Assembly (NCBI GenBank): GCA_038257035.1
Contig: JBBSJT010000045.1
Coordinates: forward strand, 1 to 18,000
Direction: 5' to 3'
Origin: Chlamydiia bacterium
GTDB lineage: Bacteria; Chlamydiota; Chlamydiia; Chlamydiales; Parachlamydiaceae
Length of the DNA stretch: 18,000 nucleotides
In this document: positions 544-9,107 of the stretch, piece by piece
How positions within the stretch are numbered: the stretch's first letter is position 1
How the letters are laid out: every line of letters begins with the position of its first letter
Position numbers and translations under genes: made by a program
The notes under the pieces: model-generated
The model's database searches: none
What the model was told of the DNA's origin: nothing
The model's input: only the letters and a program-made list of their open reading frames with translations

Positions 544-568
544 GGAAAATATCTTTTTTTAAAATTGG

Positions 569-1150
569 TTAAACGTATTTGAAGGTGTGGCTTACAGTGA
601 TGCTGTCACCATTTTTTATGCCATATGCTTGCAAAGTTAAATCTTCATTAAGATCAGATGATGGAGAATATTGAAAATTATATTTAGACTCCAAAAAGGG
701 TCGTGGTTGATCGTTTGGTGAATAGGTAGTATCTTGACCCAGCATTTGACAGCAGATTTCCATAATTTTTTTCATTTTTGTGTTTTCATCAACAATTAAA
801 ATTCCCCATTTTAAGCCCCCTCTACCATGACCTAAATTGATTTGAACTTTTTCAGCGTTCCCTTTTTCATCGATAAATAATTCTCCAACTCTTTGAATTG
901 TCTCTCTACAAAAAGGACACGGATTTCTATCATCTTTGTAAAAACTGGACCGTCCATCACTTTTCGCTTCAATTAAACAGACGTTATGGTATGTGTGTCC
1001 GCATGTCAATTGTCGTAAATGGCTTGAACTTTCTTCGCAAAGCAAAGGATCAAGGCAAATTGCACATTCTTGTTCTTTTAACGTGTTATAAATATTAATG
1101 GTTGGTAATGGTAATGGAAATGGTAGTTTAGATCCCTCAAAATTATTCAT
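569..1150 (-). CDS. RING-H2 zinc-finger protein with C-terminal ubiquitin-like domain; putative E3-ligase effector
   Basis: C29-x2-C32-x17-C50-x-H52-x2-H55-x2-C58-x19-C78-P-F-C81-R82 is a C3H2C3 RING-H2 pattern. The C-terminal VDENTKMKKIMEICCQMLG...LNEDLTLQAYGIKNGDSITV resembles a beta-grasp Ubl/SUMO-like domain. Confidence 0.85.
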   Translation of the reverse strand: MNNFEGSKLPFPLPLPTINIYNTLKEQECAICLDPLLCEESSSHLRQLTCGHTYHNVCLIEAKSDGRSSFYKDDRNPCPFCRETIQRVGELFIDEKGNAEKVQINLGHGRGGLKWGILIVDENTKMKKIMEICCQMLGQDTTYSPNDQPRPFLESKYNFQYSPSSDLNEDLTLQAYGIKNGDSITVSHTFKYV

Positions 1151-1400
1151 CAGTTCTCTTTTTTTGTTATTAAATTTAATTTAATAAATAATTCTAGCAT
1201 TGATTTGTGATTAATATCAATCGTAAAAAAAATTGTACTATGGTTAGTCACAGTGAGATGCAGATTTGAACTTTCAAAAAAAACTTGATTTTAAAAGATT
1301 CGGATGAGATAGGTAATTCATACAATGGCTACATCTTATAGTTACTAAACAGTAGAAATAGGAGTGTGTAATATTGTTTTAAATAGGGAGGGTGATTCTT

Positions 1401-2552
1401 ATGCAATCAGAAAAATTGACTCAAGAACTTGAAATTCCTCCATTTAATTTACATCGATTTTTAAAAACTGTATTTGACCCCAAAAAAGGGGAAAAGCTTG
1501 CCATTTTGATCGATTTGGAAAATCCTGAAGAGCTAAAGGATTTTGATTTCTTAAACAAAAGCGGTCATGAAGCACAAAAAAAAGCTTACGAAATATTCTA
1601 TCAAGGGTTGAAACGAGGGGAGATGCAAGCCTTTGAGCTTGAATCAGTTGACTTTTTTGCCTACCAGATGACGGGAGGGAGCAATCTTGAATTGCCATCA
1701 ACTGTCGTTTCAAGCCAAGGTGAAATCTTAAAATTGACTGATGTTTACATCAAGTATGAAATCATTCTTTGCATCGGCGCCTTTTCAGCAACAGCACCAT
1801 TGACATTAGCTGCAAAAGAATATGATTTTAGAGGGGCTACAATCCCGGGGCTCAACGATATAGTTTTAAATACAGGTCTTGCCACAGATCAAAATCAAGT
1901 CTGCCAATGCACAGAGAAAATGCGTCAAGGCATGACAGGTGCCGATTCTGCAGATATTGATTTTGAAGTAGGCAGTGCCAAATTTCATTTGCATTTTTAT
2001 CTTGGCGATCAAGTTGCCCAAAAAAATGATGGCATTTGCCATGAATGCAAACATGTTGTCAATCTACCTGCTGGAAAAGTGTATTTTATTCCCTACGATG
2101 CAGAGGGGAGTTTCCCAATGAAATTTGATGATGGAACCCTTGCAGCATTAACTGTCAGTAAGGGGCGCGTCAAAAAAGTAAACTTAATCAGTGGAGATCA
2201 GAAAAAAGTTGATGAGCTACAAGGTAAAATCGATAATGATAAGGCTGTTGGTATCATCGGCGAGCTAGGATTTGGCACTCAAATTTTACCTCATAGCGGA
2301 TGCAATGTTCAAGATGGTAAGGTATTTGGAACGTTTCATTTTGGAATTGGGCGCAATGATCATCTCCACGGTTCAGTGACATTAAGTCGTTTCATTGATA
2401 CCAAAAATGCTTCGCATGAAGATATTTTATTTTCTCAGGAAGCAACACCTGAAATTAAGGTGGTCAGATTTTCGATCAAGCGAAACGGCAAAGAAGAGCT
2501 CGTCATTGAAAATGATGAACCCAAGGAATACCTCAAATCCCTCCTCTCCTAG
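1401..2552 (+). CDS. Peptidase M29 (thermophilic metalloprotease / aminopeptidase T-like) family homologue, possibly catalytically degenerate
   Basis: Motifs NLPAGKVY, IGELGFG, QDGK..GTFHFGIGRNDH and HED follow the M29 C-terminal motif order. GGAGG at 1387-1391 favours ATG 1401 over GTG 1392 as the start. Confidence 0.7.
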   Translation: MQSEKLTQELEIPPFNLHRFLKTVFDPKKGEKLAILIDLENPEELKDFDFLNKSGHEAQKKAYEIFYQGLKRGEMQAFELESVDFFAYQMTGGSNLELPSTVVSSQGEILKLTDVYIKYEIILCIGAFSATAPLTLAAKEYDFRGATIPGLNDIVLNTGLATDQNQVCQCTEKMRQGMTGADSADIDFEVGSAKFHLHFYLGDQVAQKNDGICHECKHVVNLPAGKVYFIPYDAEGSFPMKFDDGTLAALTVSKGRVKKVNLISGDQKKVDELQGKIDNDKAVGIIGELGFGTQILPHSGCNVQDGKVFGTFHFGIGRNDHLHGSVTLSRFIDTKNASHEDILFSQEATPEIKVVRFSIKRNGKEELVIENDEPKEYLKSLLS

Positions 2553-2838: not shown

Positions 2839-3873
2839 TCATTCTACAGGGATGAGGCTCTCTTTTAGGCCTTGCTTGTCCAGCTTGACCAACCAAATTT
2901 CATGATCCTGCCTTCCATAACTAATGTAGACAAATCGCTTTGTGGCAATAAATCCACATGGAAAAATGACTTTAACTGGATGCCAGTAGGGGGTATATTC
3001 CTTGCCTTCATAAAATCCTAATGAAATAATTGGTTTGTTGCTAATATTTGTAATTTCAAAGGGTGGTTCTTTATTAAAAGTGTAGGCACCCATAAAGTAA
3101 TGGGGGATTTTTTGTCCCTTGGAGTGAACCGTCGACATATTCATTGAACTGTGAAAAAATGCAAGGTACTCATCTCCATCAAGAATAGCGGGGGTACCGC
3201 CTCGAAGTTCGCCAAAATCCCAAGACACATTCGAATGTGTGCAACTTATGGTTGTTGCCTCATTGGAGCAAGGAATAGGATATAAAATTTTGTGTTCTTG
3301 CAAACTATAGGCCATTAAAAGATATCCATCATAATCAAATGGAACCCAATTTTTTTCTCTTCTATGTTTATTCTCACCTTCAAAATGCAAAATAGCGTCT
3401 GTGTTTCCAATTCCGATGGTTTCGTTATCAATAAAAATCTCTGTTATATACATCCTAAAACCCGAAGTGCACACCAATTCATCTCTGTTGTCGCTATAAA
3501 TAAGATAGAGTCTGTTTGCAACTTTAATCAATCTTGCATCCTCAGATTTTGCATTTTCGAAACCAAGGTCAATGATTTGGGGTTCATTTATGGGGTTAAA
3601 ATCAGCATCCAAGAAAATGAGCCCAATTAAGCTCTCCGCCGAAGAACAAAAGGAGTTAGTTTTTGAGTCTTCAGGAATTGTTCTAAAACTTAATAGAATT
3701 TTATTATCCCATTCTATGATAGAAGGATTAAAGGCGTGGGGGTATTCAGGTATCTGAAGTTGTTTTGTCTTTAGAACAAAGCTTGAGGCTTGTTCTTCCA
3801 GGTTTACTTCTGCAAAACCGTTATATGAATAAAAAAGTGAACTGAAAATAAAAGTGATGAGAAAAATATTCAT
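2839..3873 (-). CDS. Exported five-bladed beta-propeller glycoenzyme, GH130/GT91(Bmt)-like (paralogue 3)
   Basis: Signal-like N-terminus (MNIFLITFIFSSLFYSYNGFA). Motifs AFNPSI, EDARL, EKNWVPF, ELRGGTP, FFHS, HYFMGAY, VIFPCG, YGRQD. Confidence 0.7.
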   Translation of the reverse strand: MNIFLITFIFSSLFYSYNGFAEVNLEEQASSFVLKTKQLQIPEYPHAFNPSIIEWDNKILLSFRTIPEDSKTNSFCSSAESLIGLIFLDADFNPINEPQIIDLGFENAKSEDARLIKVANRLYLIYSDNRDELVCTSGFRMYITEIFIDNETIGIGNTDAILHFEGENKHRREKNWVPFDYDGYLLMAYSLQEHKILYPIPCSNEATTISCTHSNVSWDFGELRGGTPAILDGDEYLAFFHSSMNMSTVHSKGQKIPHYFMGAYTFNKEPPFEITNISNKPIISLGFYEGKEYTPYWHPVKVIFPCGFIATKRFVYISYGRQDHEIWLVKLDKQGLKESLIPVE

Positions 3874-3889
3874 GTTAACCTAAAAAAAA

Positions 3890-4963
3890 TTAATTCTGAC
3901 AATCTACCAAGCTATCAAGAAGTTGCTGTTTATCAATTTTGACAATCCACATTTCATGGTCTTGTCGACCGTAGGAGACATAAATAAATGGCTCTTCAAT
4001 AAGGATTCCGCAAGGAAAAACACACCTGACAGATTTCCAATAATGTTTGTAGTAAACACCCTTGTAAAAGCCTTTTCCAACGATGGGCCGAGGACTTATT
4101 TTATTGATTTTAAAAGGGGGGGTTGACGAAAAGGTGTAGGCACCCATAAAATAATGAGGGATACATTTTTTATTTGAGTAAACACTTAAAAGATCAATAG
4201 ATGAATGAAAAAATGAAATGTACTGATCACCATCAAGAACTGCAGGAGTTCCTCCTCTAAGTTCTCCAAATTCCCAATTTAACTTTGGCTCAGTACTTGC
4301 AATAGTTTCACATTTGTTAGTTTTGGGTAGATGCTGAAAAATCGTATGAGGAATCAAGCTGTATGCGAGCATCATGTTGCCATGATAATCAAAAGGAACC
4401 CAATTTTTTTCTCTCAAATAGGGGTTTGCCCCTTCAAATTGTTTTAAGCAATCCGTGTGTACAACGACAAATTGATCGTTTCTATAATCTATTTCTGAGG
4501 TATAAACGCGAAATCCTCCTTTACTGATGTAGTCCTCTTTGTTATCACTATAAACGAGGAAAAGTTTTTCGCCGATCACTATTAACCGTCCGTCTTCAGC
4601 TCTGGAAGGGACAATTGACAAAGGGTCTTGGGTATCAATGATTTGCGGTTTGGTTATTGGGTTAAAATCTTCATCAAGCAAAACAAACCCGATTTGAGAG
4701 TTAAAAGTTAAAAGTGGGCTTGGAATGATGCGAAAACTTAATATCAACATATCTTTGAAGCGGACAATTCCCGGATTAAAAGCATGTTTATATTCATCTA
4801 ATAGAATCCGTTTGGTGTCCATAATGTATGTTTGGCAATTATCCTCCAATTCAATTTCTTCTTGAGGCTTGTTTGACCAAAATAAAGTATTTAAAAAATT
4901 ATTTTCATGAGCAACAGCCACATCAAATATCGTAAGTAGCAAGAATAATATTCTGAATTGCAT
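3890..4963 (-). CDS. Exported five-bladed beta-propeller glycoenzyme, GH130/GT91(Bmt)-like (paralogue 2)
   Basis: Signal-like N-terminus ending AVA. Motifs AFNPGI, EDGRL, EKNWVPF, ELRGGTP, FFHS, HYFMGAY, VFPCG, YGRQD. Confidence 0.7.
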   Translation of the reverse strand: MQFRILFLLLTIFDVAVAHENNFLNTLFWSNKPQEEIELEDNCQTYIMDTKRILLDEYKHAFNPGIVRFKDMLILSFRIIPSPLLTFNSQIGFVLLDEDFNPITKPQIIDTQDPLSIVPSRAEDGRLIVIGEKLFLVYSDNKEDYISKGGFRVYTSEIDYRNDQFVVVHTDCLKQFEGANPYLREKNWVPFDYHGNMMLAYSLIPHTIFQHLPKTNKCETIASTEPKLNWEFGELRGGTPAVLDGDQYISFFHSSIDLLSVYSNKKCIPHYFMGAYTFSSTPPFKINKISPRPIVGKGFYKGVYYKHYWKSVRCVFPCGILIEEPFIYVSYGRQDHEMWIVKIDKQQLLDSLVDCQN

Positions 4964-4974
4964 TTAAAGCCCCT

Positions 4975-5979
4975 TTATAATCTGTCCAAACTCTTTAAAA
5001 GAGCCGCTCTATCCATAGTTACAATCCAAATCTCATGATCCTGTCTTCCATAGGCTACAAAGATGTGTTGATCATCAAAAATAAACCCACCAGGAAAAAC
5101 AACCCTTAGAGGTTTCCACGTTTTATGTGATGGACCATTATAGAAATTTTTTCCGATGATCGGTTTTTTACTGATCGATTTAATTGCATGGGGAGCATCT
5201 TTTTCAAAAGTGTATGCCCCCATGAAGTAGTGGGGAATTCTCTTTCCATCGGATTGCACTGTTTTCATCTCTTTTGCTGAATGAAAAAAAGAGAGATATT
5301 CATCCCCGACAAGAAATGCTTGTGAGCCACCCCTTAGTTCTCCATATTTCCATGGAGCTTTATTTACAGTTGAACCTTGAGTTTCACATCGATTTTCAAA
5401 TGCAATAGGTTTTAAAATTGTGTGTGGTTGAAGGGAATAGATTAACATTAATTGATCTTCATAAACAAAAGGTGTCCAATTTTTTTCATGACGACTTTTA
5501 TTTTCCTGATCAAAATTGTTAAGAACTTCAGGATTTTCAATGTAAAATCTTTTTCCATCAAATTCCATTTTTCCAATCAACATGCGTCTAAAGCCTTTTC
5601 TTGCTGAACCCAACATATCATTATAAACCATGAATAGCTCATCGCCGATAGTAATAATTCTTGGATCTTGCGCCATAGATTGGCCAGATATTTGATTTCT
5701 TATTTCGACAACGTAGGGTTTTGAGATTGGCTTAAACTTATTATCAAGTTCAATTAAACCTATTTGATTTGTCGTTTTAGAAAGGGGATCGCGTATTCTA
5801 AATACAAGCAAAATAGAATCCTGATAGCGCACAATTGATGGATTGAAAGCATCAGGATATTTTGGAATATGAATTTGCTTTGTATCTAAAATAAATGGAT
5901 CGGGATTTTCTTCCAAATCAATAACTGTTGAAAATAAAAAATTAAAAAATGACAAAAATAATAAAATTAAGTATTTCAA
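4975..5979 (-). CDS. Exported five-bladed beta-propeller glycoenzyme, GH130/GT91(Bmt)-like (paralogue 1)
   Basis: TTG start and signal-like N-terminus MKYLILLFLSFFNFLFS. Motifs AFNPSI, QDPRI, EKNWTPF, ELRGGSQ, FFHS, HYFMGAY, VVFPGG, YGRQD. Confidence 0.7.
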   Translation of the reverse strand: MKYLILLFLSFFNFLFSTVIDLEENPDPFILDTKQIHIPKYPDAFNPSIVRYQDSILLVFRIRDPLSKTTNQIGLIELDNKFKPISKPYVVEIRNQISGQSMAQDPRIITIGDELFMVYNDMLGSARKGFRRMLIGKMEFDGKRFYIENPEVLNNFDQENKSRHEKNWTPFVYEDQLMLIYSLQPHTILKPIAFENRCETQGSTVNKAPWKYGELRGGSQAFLVGDEYLSFFHSAKEMKTVQSDGKRIPHYFMGAYTFEKDAPHAIKSISKKPIIGKNFYNGPSHKTWKPLRVVFPGGFIFDDQHIFVAYGRQDHEIWIVTMDRAALLKSLDRL

Positions 5980-5996
5980 AGCTGTACCTAAAACCT

Positions 5997-6878
5997 TTAT
6001 TTAGCAAAATTTATTTTTTTAAATTCACTATCTGGCCAATATTCAAAAGGGAAGGCATTGTAAAGCTTCTCAAGATCGCAATCAAAAGGCGGTTCGCCGC
6101 CCATTTGCAAAGCTTCTTCAACGGATGTTGCGAATTTAAAATCAGGACGGTTTGTTCCAAGATAGTAGTCGATATATTTTAACATTGGTTCATTATCTGT
6201 CACTCGCAAATACCTTGCAGGAATCCCGAAAGCTTCTGCCAAAATAATGCCATGCAAAGAGCTTGAAATAACAAAAGCGCTATTTGTGATTTGTTCAATA
6301 ATTGTAAATAGCTCATCTGTTGGGTAGACAATTTTCATGAACTCATTTTTTGGAAATAATTTTTCTTCGCTGTAATGTGGGATCACGATGAAATCATGTT
6401 CAGGATATTTTTTCTTTTTAAATTCAGGAAAAAAATAAGGAACAAGCAGGGCTGGATCACCGTAAATTTCCGGACAGTTAATCCCGAAGGTTTCCATCAA
6501 AAATTGTCTTGAAAGAGGCCCTCTTATGGCTCGAACATCTAGTTCTGTAAAGTTATAATCTTTTTTATCCATGCGTTTTCCGTTTGTCCCAGTTCCCCAT
6601 ACAACATCATTTTGGTTTGAAAAAATAAGAATGGAGCCTATTGCCAGTAATTTTTTTTCATAACCAAACATCTTTTTTTTATAAACGCGAACCTCTTCTC
6701 CAACGATCCTCTCGACAAGTTTTAATGAAAGATAATCACCAAAATTTACCATGCGAGGTTGTTGCCAATAATAAAGCGGTAATCCTTGTTTTGTGAATGA
6801 AGTTGAGTAGCAAGGCGATAAACATAAAATTAACTCAAGAACTAAATAGAGGCTGATTATTTTATTTTTTAAAAGCAT
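5997..6878 (-). CDS. Polysaccharide pyruvyltransferase family protein (ExoV-like) with N-terminal hydrophobic signal/anchor
   Basis: Motifs NFGDYLS, LAIGSIL, VWGTG, AIRGPLS, GDPALL, IPHY, SSSLHGIILAEAFGIP, KYIDYY. Confidence 0.85.
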   Translation of the reverse strand: MLLKNKIISLYLVLELILCLSPCYSTSFTKQGLPLYYWQQPRMVNFGDYLSLKLVERIVGEEVRVYKKKMFGYEKKLLAIGSILIFSNQNDVVWGTGTNGKRMDKKDYNFTELDVRAIRGPLSRQFLMETFGINCPEIYGDPALLVPYFFPEFKKKKYPEHDFIVIPHYSEEKLFPKNEFMKIVYPTDELFTIIEQITNSAFVISSSLHGIILAEAFGIPARYLRVTDNEPMLKYIDYYLGTNRPDFKFATSVEEALQMGGEPPFDCDLEKLYNAFPFEYWPDSEFKKINFAK

Positions 6879-8951: not shown

Positions 8952-9107
8952 CATTTTTTTGACCGCGAAGACCGCGAACAAAGACGCGAAGAAACGCGAA
9001 GAAGCGCACTGTCGTGCGAAAATTGAGGCTTTTTTTCTTATCGCGCTTTAGCGCGCTTCTTCGCGTTTCTTCGCGTCTTTCTTCGCGGTCTTCGCGGTGA
9101 AAAAATG
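8952..9107. repeat. Long palindromic element, CGCGAAG type (copy 2)
   Basis: Arms 8962-9007 and 9053-9098 are complementary at 45/46 nt and flanked by CAT7 / A6TG. Same terminal sequence as 2605-2832. Confidence 0.92.

Follow-up and report, generated by a model that had tools for sequence, protein, structure and literature searches.

The stretch of DNA analysed here (the window) is contig C45, 18,000 bases, of the 2.37-Mb, 210-contig assembly of a Chlamydiia bacterium (G000). On its reverse strand at 569..1150 lies the gene for a small protein, P0001, which joins a RING-H2 finger to a probable ubiquitin-like (Ubl) tail. The gene was defined from a list of open reading frames (ORFs) and their translations: it runs for 193 codons (193 residues) from an ATG, with the stop at 569-571, within a stop-to-stop frame of 203 codons, and the homologues P0002, P0005 and P0006 align with its product from end to end. 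The N-terminus reads MNNFEGSKLPFPLPLPTINIYNT, and its first 16 residues (MNNFEGSKLPFPLPLP, 1103..1150, reverse strand) are rich in proline and asparagine, as an earlier reading of this DNA made from the letters alone (the sequence-only reading) had stated; residues 1-23 of the translation hold four Pro and five Asn. In the family alignment this segment is kept in three of four members, its LPFPL core being present in P0001, P0006 and P0002 and the whole stretch missing from P0005. The segment is a candidate for secretion or docking; its conservation is not diagnostic of secretion. A linker (residues 83-100; 851..904, reverse strand) joins the finger to the tail. It holds F92, invariant in the alignment, had low AlphaFold confidence in both runs, and gave no Pfam match in scans of the whole protein or of the tail. 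Upstream of the gene, at 1191..1220 on the reverse strand, we found a candidate sigma-70-like promoter (TTGATA, 18 nt, TG-TAGAAT) with an extended -10 and 10 of 12 positions fitting. Because the scan gave four sites against a mean of 6.4 in shuffled sequence, this match is suggestive only.

The RING-H2 finger spans residues 27-82 (905..1072, reverse strand), over which the zf-RING_2 model is matched in full (positions 1-44 of 44). Eight zinc ligands can be read directly from the translation, C29, C32, C50, H52, H55, C58, C78 and C81, giving a C3H2C3 set with the cross-brace spacing C-x2-C ... C-x-H-x2-H-x2-C ... C-x2-C. I31 precedes the second ligand, P79 follows the seventh and R82 follows the last. 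By their places in RING structures with ubiquitin-conjugating enzymes (E2), I31 is at the E2-contact position and R82 at the linchpin position; A62 presumably occupies the place where many RING-H2 fingers carry Trp. The four family members agree at every one of the eight ligands, at I31 and R82 and at 30 further positions; P79 is kept in three, P0006 having Ala there. Pfam matched P0001 with eight families, all of RING type. The best was zf-RING_2 (PF13639; E 5.1e-6; 27.1 bits where the cut-off is 27.3), and zf-C3HC4 (PF00097) reached 21.6 bits against a cut-off of 21. When the whole genome was scanned in six frames with PF13639, the sole match was this gene (905-1072, reverse strand; 29.2 bits, over the cut-off), and the same scan of 14 control genomes gave no match. 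The homologues P0002 (zf-RING_2 30.1 bits, zf-RING_5 33.5 bits) and P0005 (zf-RING_2 27.6 bits) also score over the cut-off. All 26 PDB sequence matches of P0001 at E<=1 are RING ubiquitin ligases (E3), TRIM5 being the best (E 3.8e-4) and AMFR another, and a family profile found Arkadia, RNF165 and RNF4 at the top. The RING-H2 call is thus sound and beyond chance, and the complete C3H2C3 RING with I31, P79 and R82 that had been proposed stands, with the ligands read directly and Pfam scores at or over the cut-off.

The C-terminal domain (residues 101-193; 572..850, reverse strand) is a probable ubiquitin/SUMO-like beta-grasp, to which sub-threshold Pfam matches and a SUMO match in the PDB point. 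Near its end, at residues 167-186 (593..652, reverse strand), lies the sequence LNEDLTLQAYGIKNGDSITV, which reads L-x-x-D-x-T-L-x-x-Y-G-I-x-x-G-D-x-I-x-V. A scan of the whole genome with the ubiquitin model PF00240 picked this as its best site, with an E-value that is not significant (0.82, 11 bits). At the domain end it aligns with ubiquitin model positions 48-67, in register with the C-terminal strand motif L-x-D-x-x-T-L-x-x-Y-x-I-x-x-x-S/D-x-I-x-L/V of ubiquitin-like domains. The protein finishes HTFKYV and its homologues finish YKFI, TYKF and FKYI; because the terminal Gly-Gly is absent, the tail is not conjugatable. The Ubl-type signature without a terminal GG, likewise claimed from the letters, is therefore present. 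Of five Pfam families matching the tail at E<=10, four are of ubiquitin type: YukD (E 0.0045), Rad60-SLD (0.023), ubiquitin (0.088) and UBL_USP40 (0.19). The sole PDB sequence match of the tail is 5gjl_A (E 0.53 with the single sequence, 0.17 with a four-sequence profile), which by its structure title is Plasmodium falciparum SUMO. Profile positions 14-59 match chain residues 19-62, that is strand 1, strand 2 and helix 1. This match on the first half of the domain is colinear with the Rad60-SLD and ubiquitin matches on the last strands, provided that residues 138-152, a Pro-rich stretch of about 14 residues after the helix, form an insertion.

Comparison with other ubiquitin domains pointed the same way. 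P0003, a protein outside the family that the tail finds with phmmer at E 2.6e-9, carries four tandem ubiquitin repeats (Pfam ubiquitin, 65.5 bits, four stretches), and hhalign of the tail alignment against these four Ubl repeats gave a probability of 88.5% over 20 columns. Against 20 chlamydial ubiquitin domains the probability was 54.7% (P 1.2e-4, 19 columns). A hidden Markov model built from these 20 domains was then scored against 1000 composition-matched shuffles for each family member. The real tail score was reached by 0, 2, 2 and 7 of the 1000 in the four members, and the match always fell at the same C-terminal place. AlphaFold2 run on the four-sequence alignment gave the order E-E-H-E-(H)-E, as in a beta-grasp, at a predicted local distance difference test score (pLDDT) of only 50.6. 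In a language-model search with whole P0002, where scores under 0.9 are leads only, the nearest neighbours were two clusters of 156-158-residue proteins (0.88 and 0.86) with ubiquitin in 88% and 84% of members and with Rad60-SLD and RING families besides. The next neighbours were eukaryotic clusters with ubiquitin and zf-RING_2, and a Nucleocytoviricota RING cluster was also found. The tail alone reached at best 0.77, and the ESM Atlas has no model of the P0001 tail or of P0002.

Several results weigh against a ubiquitin-like fold. No ubiquitin-type family reached its cut-off: ubiquitin scored 13.0 bits against 25.4, Rad60-SLD (PF11976) 15.0 against 23.8, YukD (PF08817) 18.2 against 27, and UBL_USP40 12.2 against 23.2. 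Of these families only UBL_USP40 turns up again when the remaining three members are scanned (two of four members overall, E 0.14 or worse), and two non-Ubl families appear there at similar E-values. The profile-profile matches span only 19-20 columns, and a forced global alignment had a probability of 7.6%. The agreement of the four members does not amount to four independent tests, because they are relatives. Only residues 69-100 of the tail exceeded pLDDT 70 in the four-sequence AlphaFold2 run, and a single-sequence AlphaFold model of the whole protein was useless (pLDDT 32.2). The Foldseek comparison that had been suggested as a check found nothing against the PDB at E<=0.001; it returned weak Ubl/SUMO rows only, 11 chains by title among the 46 listed, all at E>=1.8 and with root mean square deviations of 5-19 A. 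A wide fold search of the tail with VIA-align gave nothing significant. We consider that the sequence signals, all of them below curated cut-offs, nevertheless point to a ubiquitin/SUMO-like beta-grasp, which makes this part of the sequence-only reading probable.

Relatives of this protein are few. A word-indexed search with P0001 across 5.8 billion clusters (45 candidates) returned the query only. When 1.84 billion representatives were searched exhaustively by phmmer with tail residues 88-193, five proteins came up at E<=0.001, namely the query, P0002 (197 residues), P0005 (187), P0003 (367) and P0004, the last of which was dropped as a low-complexity repeat. A profile search added P0006 (198 residues) and the RING-only protein P0007. 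The four full-length members, P0001, P0002, P0005 and P0006, share 38-51% identity end to end, and no source names the homologues. Among 7999 scored candidates, a search of longer proteins with the tail profile found the family only, and a scan of genome contigs for relatives gave 63 pattern matches with none confirmed. In metagenomes, 36 out of 373 pattern matches were confirmed, every one over the RING region; the three reaching furthest towards the tail (L007, L017 and L036) were rejected as tail relatives, their C-termini being unrelated. Three relatives came from viral contigs, all matching only query residues 15-91 and showing no tail motif by eye. When the tail profile was run on 400 genomes of the phylum, no true relative was found outside the source genome. 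Two weak matches (E 3.4e-5 and 7.2e-4) were treated as spurious, because they belong to orthologous ORFs of about 260 residues that look methyltransferase-like by eye. Searches of full-text literature, covering part of publications only, found no paper on a bacterial RING-Ubl fusion. The architecture is rare: about 5.8 billion clusters and the 1.84 billion representatives yielded four full-length members. This agrees with the earlier remark that it was not recognised as a characterised bacterial protein.

As a separate observation, the AT-rich 58-kb metagenome contig of L036 holds at 1269-2255 (forward strand) a 328-residue ORF that, by eye, carries an E2/UBC-like part (HPT...CC) and a C-terminal RING-H2.

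Both parts of the protein occur elsewhere in the phylum. Of the 400 sampled genomes, 212 contain zf-RING_2 at E<=0.001 (164 over the cut-off; 0 of 14 controls), so the earlier premise that canonical RING E3 ligases are eukaryotic needs correction: the domain is not exotic here. Ubiquitin-family domains were found in 35 of the 400 (30 over the cut-off). From the 61 ubiquitin matches listed, 34 ORFs were translated and scanned against Pfam; none of the 34 had a RING-type match at E<=0.001, and 33 re-scored on ubiquitin. Because none of these 34 ubiquitin ORFs carried a RING and no true tail relative came from the 400 genomes, we conclude that the combination is rare, though both of its parts are known in the phylum.

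Other architectures were noted in chlamydial genomes. By eye, eleven of the 34 ubiquitin ORFs have one or two ubiquitin-family domains followed by a conserved Cys-containing C-terminal domain (L060-L062, L067, L086, L089-L091 and L093-L095, in genomes G070, G300, G171, G320, G164, G007, G109 and G126). The Cys-containing domain reads ...GLNL.G.C....C.A......G.G.F......CP.C...N.GF..C.Y... and has no Pfam match; some of the proteins have an internal LRGG. In L063, L064, L065 and L078 (G010, G124 and G007) the last ubiquitin domain terminates in RGD or AGD, not RGG, and three of these four have, by eye, an apparent N-terminal membrane anchor. Locus L002 (3-2579, reverse strand; contig C9 of G034), from another chlamydial family, is a tandem array of four small proteins, each with an N-terminal RING-like Cys/His pattern. 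In three of them a hydrophobic (membrane) segment follows at the C-terminus; the fourth runs into the end of the locus. A similar single gene was seen in G030 (L003, 1447-2094).

The source genome has genes for three TLC nucleotide transporters (ATP/ADP translocases). It also encodes a type III secretion system, including FHIPEP/SctV (751.9 bits, C10:7748-9757), an adjoining HrpJ/CopN-type gatekeeper (C10:6586-7005) and two secretins. Chlam_PMP was not found in the genome, and its relatives have genomes of 0.8-3.6 Mb. Because of the transporters, the secretion system and the genome sizes of its relatives, the organism is assigned as a chlamydia-like intracellular bacterium with type III secretion, and the bacterial, intracellular-type setting expected from the gene alone is borne out. 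Composition of the RING gene is native: among 1354 genomic ORFs its GC content (34.5%) lies at the 26th percentile, its GC content at third codon positions (GC3, 25.8%) at the 16th, and its codon-usage likelihood at the 93rd. The runs that hold the gene's DNA are soil metagenomes only.

Overall, the RING rests on firm ground, as does the bacterial and probably effector setting, and the ubiquitin-like fold is probable. P0001 most likely represents a rare variant among the host-manipulating proteins injected by chlamydia-like bacteria. Its sequence features suggest, with confidence that we would put at about even, a small, soluble, secreted RING E3 effector with a non-conjugatable Ubl docking module. 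That no RNA run is listed with the gene counts against this. Such an effector would probably be exported by type III secretion into a protist host. There the RING-H2 would work as in eukaryotic RING E3 ligases, binding a ubiquitin-charged host E2 and activating the transfer of ubiquitin, a step that I31 and the invariant R82 fit. The tail would serve as a built-in docking module, a beta-grasp that is not itself conjugated, and we infer its partner. It may seat on the E2 backside as the UBL of UHRF1 does, giving bivalent E2 capture, or it may bind a host receptor for ubiquitin or SUMO (UIM, UBA or SIM proteins, proteasome or p97 adaptors) and thereby set the choice of substrate or location.

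Several known systems resemble parts of this design. Polycomb RING1/PCGF proteins have an N-terminal RING and a C-terminal RAWUL domain (PF16207), a Ubl without Gly-Gly that acts as a protein-binding module. They share the probable RING-then-Ubl order of P0001, but they are eukaryotic nuclear proteins of about 330 residues, and the tail gave no RAWUL match in the Pfam search at E<=10, in which the HMMER filters drop most matches above about 0.1. The SUMO-like domains of Rad60, Esc2 and NFATC2IP are non-conjugatable SUMO-type beta-grasps that recruit the E2 Ubc9. The tail of P0001 has weak Rad60-SLD and SUMO matches; unlike P0001, those proteins have no RING and belong to the SUMO pathway. The NEX1b proteins of Neochlamydia have an N-terminal RING/U-box and leucine-rich repeats, and are interpreted as effectors that exploit host ubiquitination (PMC4209131). 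They form large expanded families with the leucine-rich repeats as binding part, whereas P0001 belongs to a four-member family with a Ubl-like tail.

The one characterised RING E3 of a chlamydia-like bacterium, described in a 2025 paper, is SneRING (SNE_A12920) of Simkania negevensis, an active K63/K11 ligase with UbcH5b and UBE2T that is expressed during infection of human cells and amoebae (PMC12591485). [quoted passage not shown] Compared by description only, the SneRING ligands are atypical (His as the third Zn1 ligand, NxxC for CxH) whereas those of P0001 are canonical C3H2C3, and the SneRING tail is without a known fold whereas that of P0001 has ubiquitin/SUMO-type signals. The UBL of UHRF1 binds the UbcH5 backside and is needed for RING-mediated ubiquitylation (PMC6242706). 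In a selective UBE2D inhibitor engineered in 2024, a 16-residue linker connects a RING to the UHRF1 UBL; the chain holds UBE2D 1:1 in a clamp, and several E3 reactions are inhibited by it (PMC11398408). UHRF1 and the engineered RING-UBL and UBOX-UBL clamps place a RING and a non-conjugatable Ubl in one chain, as P0001 probably does. UHRF1 differs in being a large multidomain chromatin protein with an N-terminal UBL, where P0001 has its Ubl-like tail at the C-terminus and its backside binding is conjectural; the clamp has the same RING-linker-UBL order and a similar linker length but is man-made. By analogy with that clamp, P0001 could be a natural bivalent E2 clamp, with the RING on the front face and the Ubl on the backside of a host UBE2D-type E2, with which the bacterium would either shut that E2 down or, at unusually high affinity, take it over. 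We regard this as unlikely. More broadly, because P0001 has the order of the engineered clamp and a linker of about 18 residues, it could be a ligase that captures its E2 with high affinity or, with lower probability, an E2 trap.

Two alternatives to the proposed effector deserve mention. P0001 may still be a RING ligase whose residues 95-193 make up an alpha/beta substrate-binding domain specific to its lineage, the Ubl-type motif being a short convergent strand-turn-strand; this is the less probable view of the tail but one to be taken seriously. All ubiquitin-type matches lie below the cut-off and effectively cover only the last 20-24 or so residues, the fold searches gave nothing, and SneRING, whose alpha/beta tail has no known fold, indicates that the tail of a chlamydial RING protein need not be a Ubl. 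However, SUMO is also indicated by weak, independent signals on the first half of the domain, which are colinear with the C-terminal matches, the predicted order of secondary structure fits a beta-grasp, and the language-model neighbours carry ubiquitin and RING families. Doubtful, and less probable than a tail of another fold, is that P0001 is an E2 trap and not a ligase, in which RING and Ubl clamp and sequester a host UBE2D-type E2 and so damp host ubiquitination, for example anti-bacterial tagging. The order of RING, linker of about 18 residues and Ubl matches the engineered RING-UBL clamp (PMC11398408), and no separate substrate-binding domain is visible in the 193 residues. Yet the invariant linchpin R82, a promoter of ubiquitin discharge, argues for catalysis, and the Ubl fold is itself only probable.

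Two further explanations concern where the gene comes from and where its product acts. A eukaryotic or giant-virus fragment joined to the contig by misassembly or binning seems hardly credible to us. The gene does lie 568 bp from the contig end, its closest RING sequences are eukaryotic or viral, and independent contigs of the soil run that holds it best are fragmentary and leave no bridge over 1082-1278, from the gene to its bacterial neighbour. But its GC content, GC3 and codon usage fit the genome, the ORF is intronless and has the sigma-70-like promoter match, and gene and neighbours have depths of similar order in the holding run (2.5-3.7 against 4.1-6.5). The downstream membrane-repeat gene, moreover, continues on contig C13 among bacterial genes, and RING genes are common in the phylum. 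(One contig joint in that best-holding run, from 305 to 1215, was ignored because of its low depth and only 21 letters on one side.) It is very improbable, too, that P0001 works inside the bacterium in a prokaryotic ubiquitin-like conjugation or defence system. Bacterial ubiquitin-like conjugation systems do appear in the reference list of the SneRING paper (PMC12591485), and Pfam has prokaryotic RING families, with weak matches in P0002 to Prok-RING_4 (E 0.0074) and Prok-RING_1 (E 0.036). Against such a role, no E1, E2 or JAB-type gene was seen among the neighbours on C45 or C13, the tail has no conjugatable end, the RING fits eukaryotic-type families best, and a P0001 query did not find the gene in the same-genus genomes.

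If the proposed effector is real, a 193-residue RING protein with its own non-conjugatable Ubl would be among the smallest self-contained E3 designs and would offer a simple system for how a Ubl in cis tunes a RING, through the E2 backside, receptor binding or auto-inhibition. Were it to clamp its E2, nature would have reached an inhibitor design that protein engineers found independently. Should the tail turn out not to be a beta-grasp, the gene would be another lineage-specific chlamydial RING effector candidate. About half of the 400 genomes sampled from the phylum have RING domains and about 9% have ubiquitin-family domains, which suggests a large and mostly unexplored toolset directed at host ubiquitin.

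The surroundings of the gene are as follows. Downstream and co-directional, 25 bp after the RING stop, lies a gene for a membrane-repeat protein that is cut by the contig end (1..543, reverse strand); it has W-T-Y-N-N-[IV]-L-T-P-I-G ... F-P-K-F repeats and no Pfam family. We found that its last 26 residues recur with 100% identity at the start of C13 (L047, 1-615, forward strand), where the frame runs for 204 residues. A join of C45 to C13 is thus probable and, because the protein is itself repetitive, not certain. The membrane-repeat gene may be an operon partner or encode an inclusion-membrane-type protein. About 4 kb along C13 and, across the probable join, about 5 kb from the RING gene, L047 4244-5218 (forward strand) encodes a 324-residue F-box protein whose presence speaks for the effector setting. 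Its F-box (PF00646) scores 22.9 bits, with a cut-off of 20.5, and its poly(A)-polymerase/CCA-adding head (PF01743) 28.3, with a cut-off of 23. Beyond it, a GMC oxidoreductase is split over two adjacent ORFs (L047 5310-6059 and 6075-7058, forward strand), the N-terminal part coming first and the rest of the N domain with the C domain second, which may reflect a frameshift, a pseudogene or an assembly error.

On the other side lies the divergent neighbour at 1392-2552 (386 residues, no Pfam family). Its orthologue in the same-genus genome G002 is 64% identical, and the same GH130-like genes follow beyond it there. At the position of the RING gene, however, G002 has other genes (L046 2900-4137, on its contig C64). 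By eye these are a 78-residue ORF like a tyrosine recombinase C-terminus and, after this recombinase/integrase-like remnant, a 335-residue DUF1016/YhcG-like ORF. This suggests a mobile-element scar at a variable locus in G002. Since other genes stand there and P0001 had no match in either same-genus genome, we place the RING gene at a variable locus. Two other soil metagenome runs contain near-identical pieces of the tail-coding region (about 94-100%), X2 over window positions 564-898 and X3 over 569-636. Right after the stop (at 564 and 569) these sequences diverge, which suggests that the downstream surroundings of the gene differ in close relatives.

Further along the window, 2839-6878 (reverse strand) holds three tandem paralogues with weak GH130 matches (E 2.5e-9 to 1.6e-10), with a polysaccharide pyruvyl transferase after them. 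The genes appear to form a glycan-modification cluster, conserved beside the 386-residue neighbour in G002. No tRNA and no Rfam family was found in the window, and this includes a palindromic GC-rich repeat of about 220 bp at 2610-2840, which has inverted ends (ACCGCGAAGAACGCGAAGAAGCGC...) and a partial copy at about 8955-9106. The repeat gave 347 blastn matches on 71 of the 210 contigs of the genome, and its summed depth in soil-run contigs was 438 and 219 against about 5 for its flanks. It looks like an element of the miniature inverted-repeat transposable element (MITE) type.

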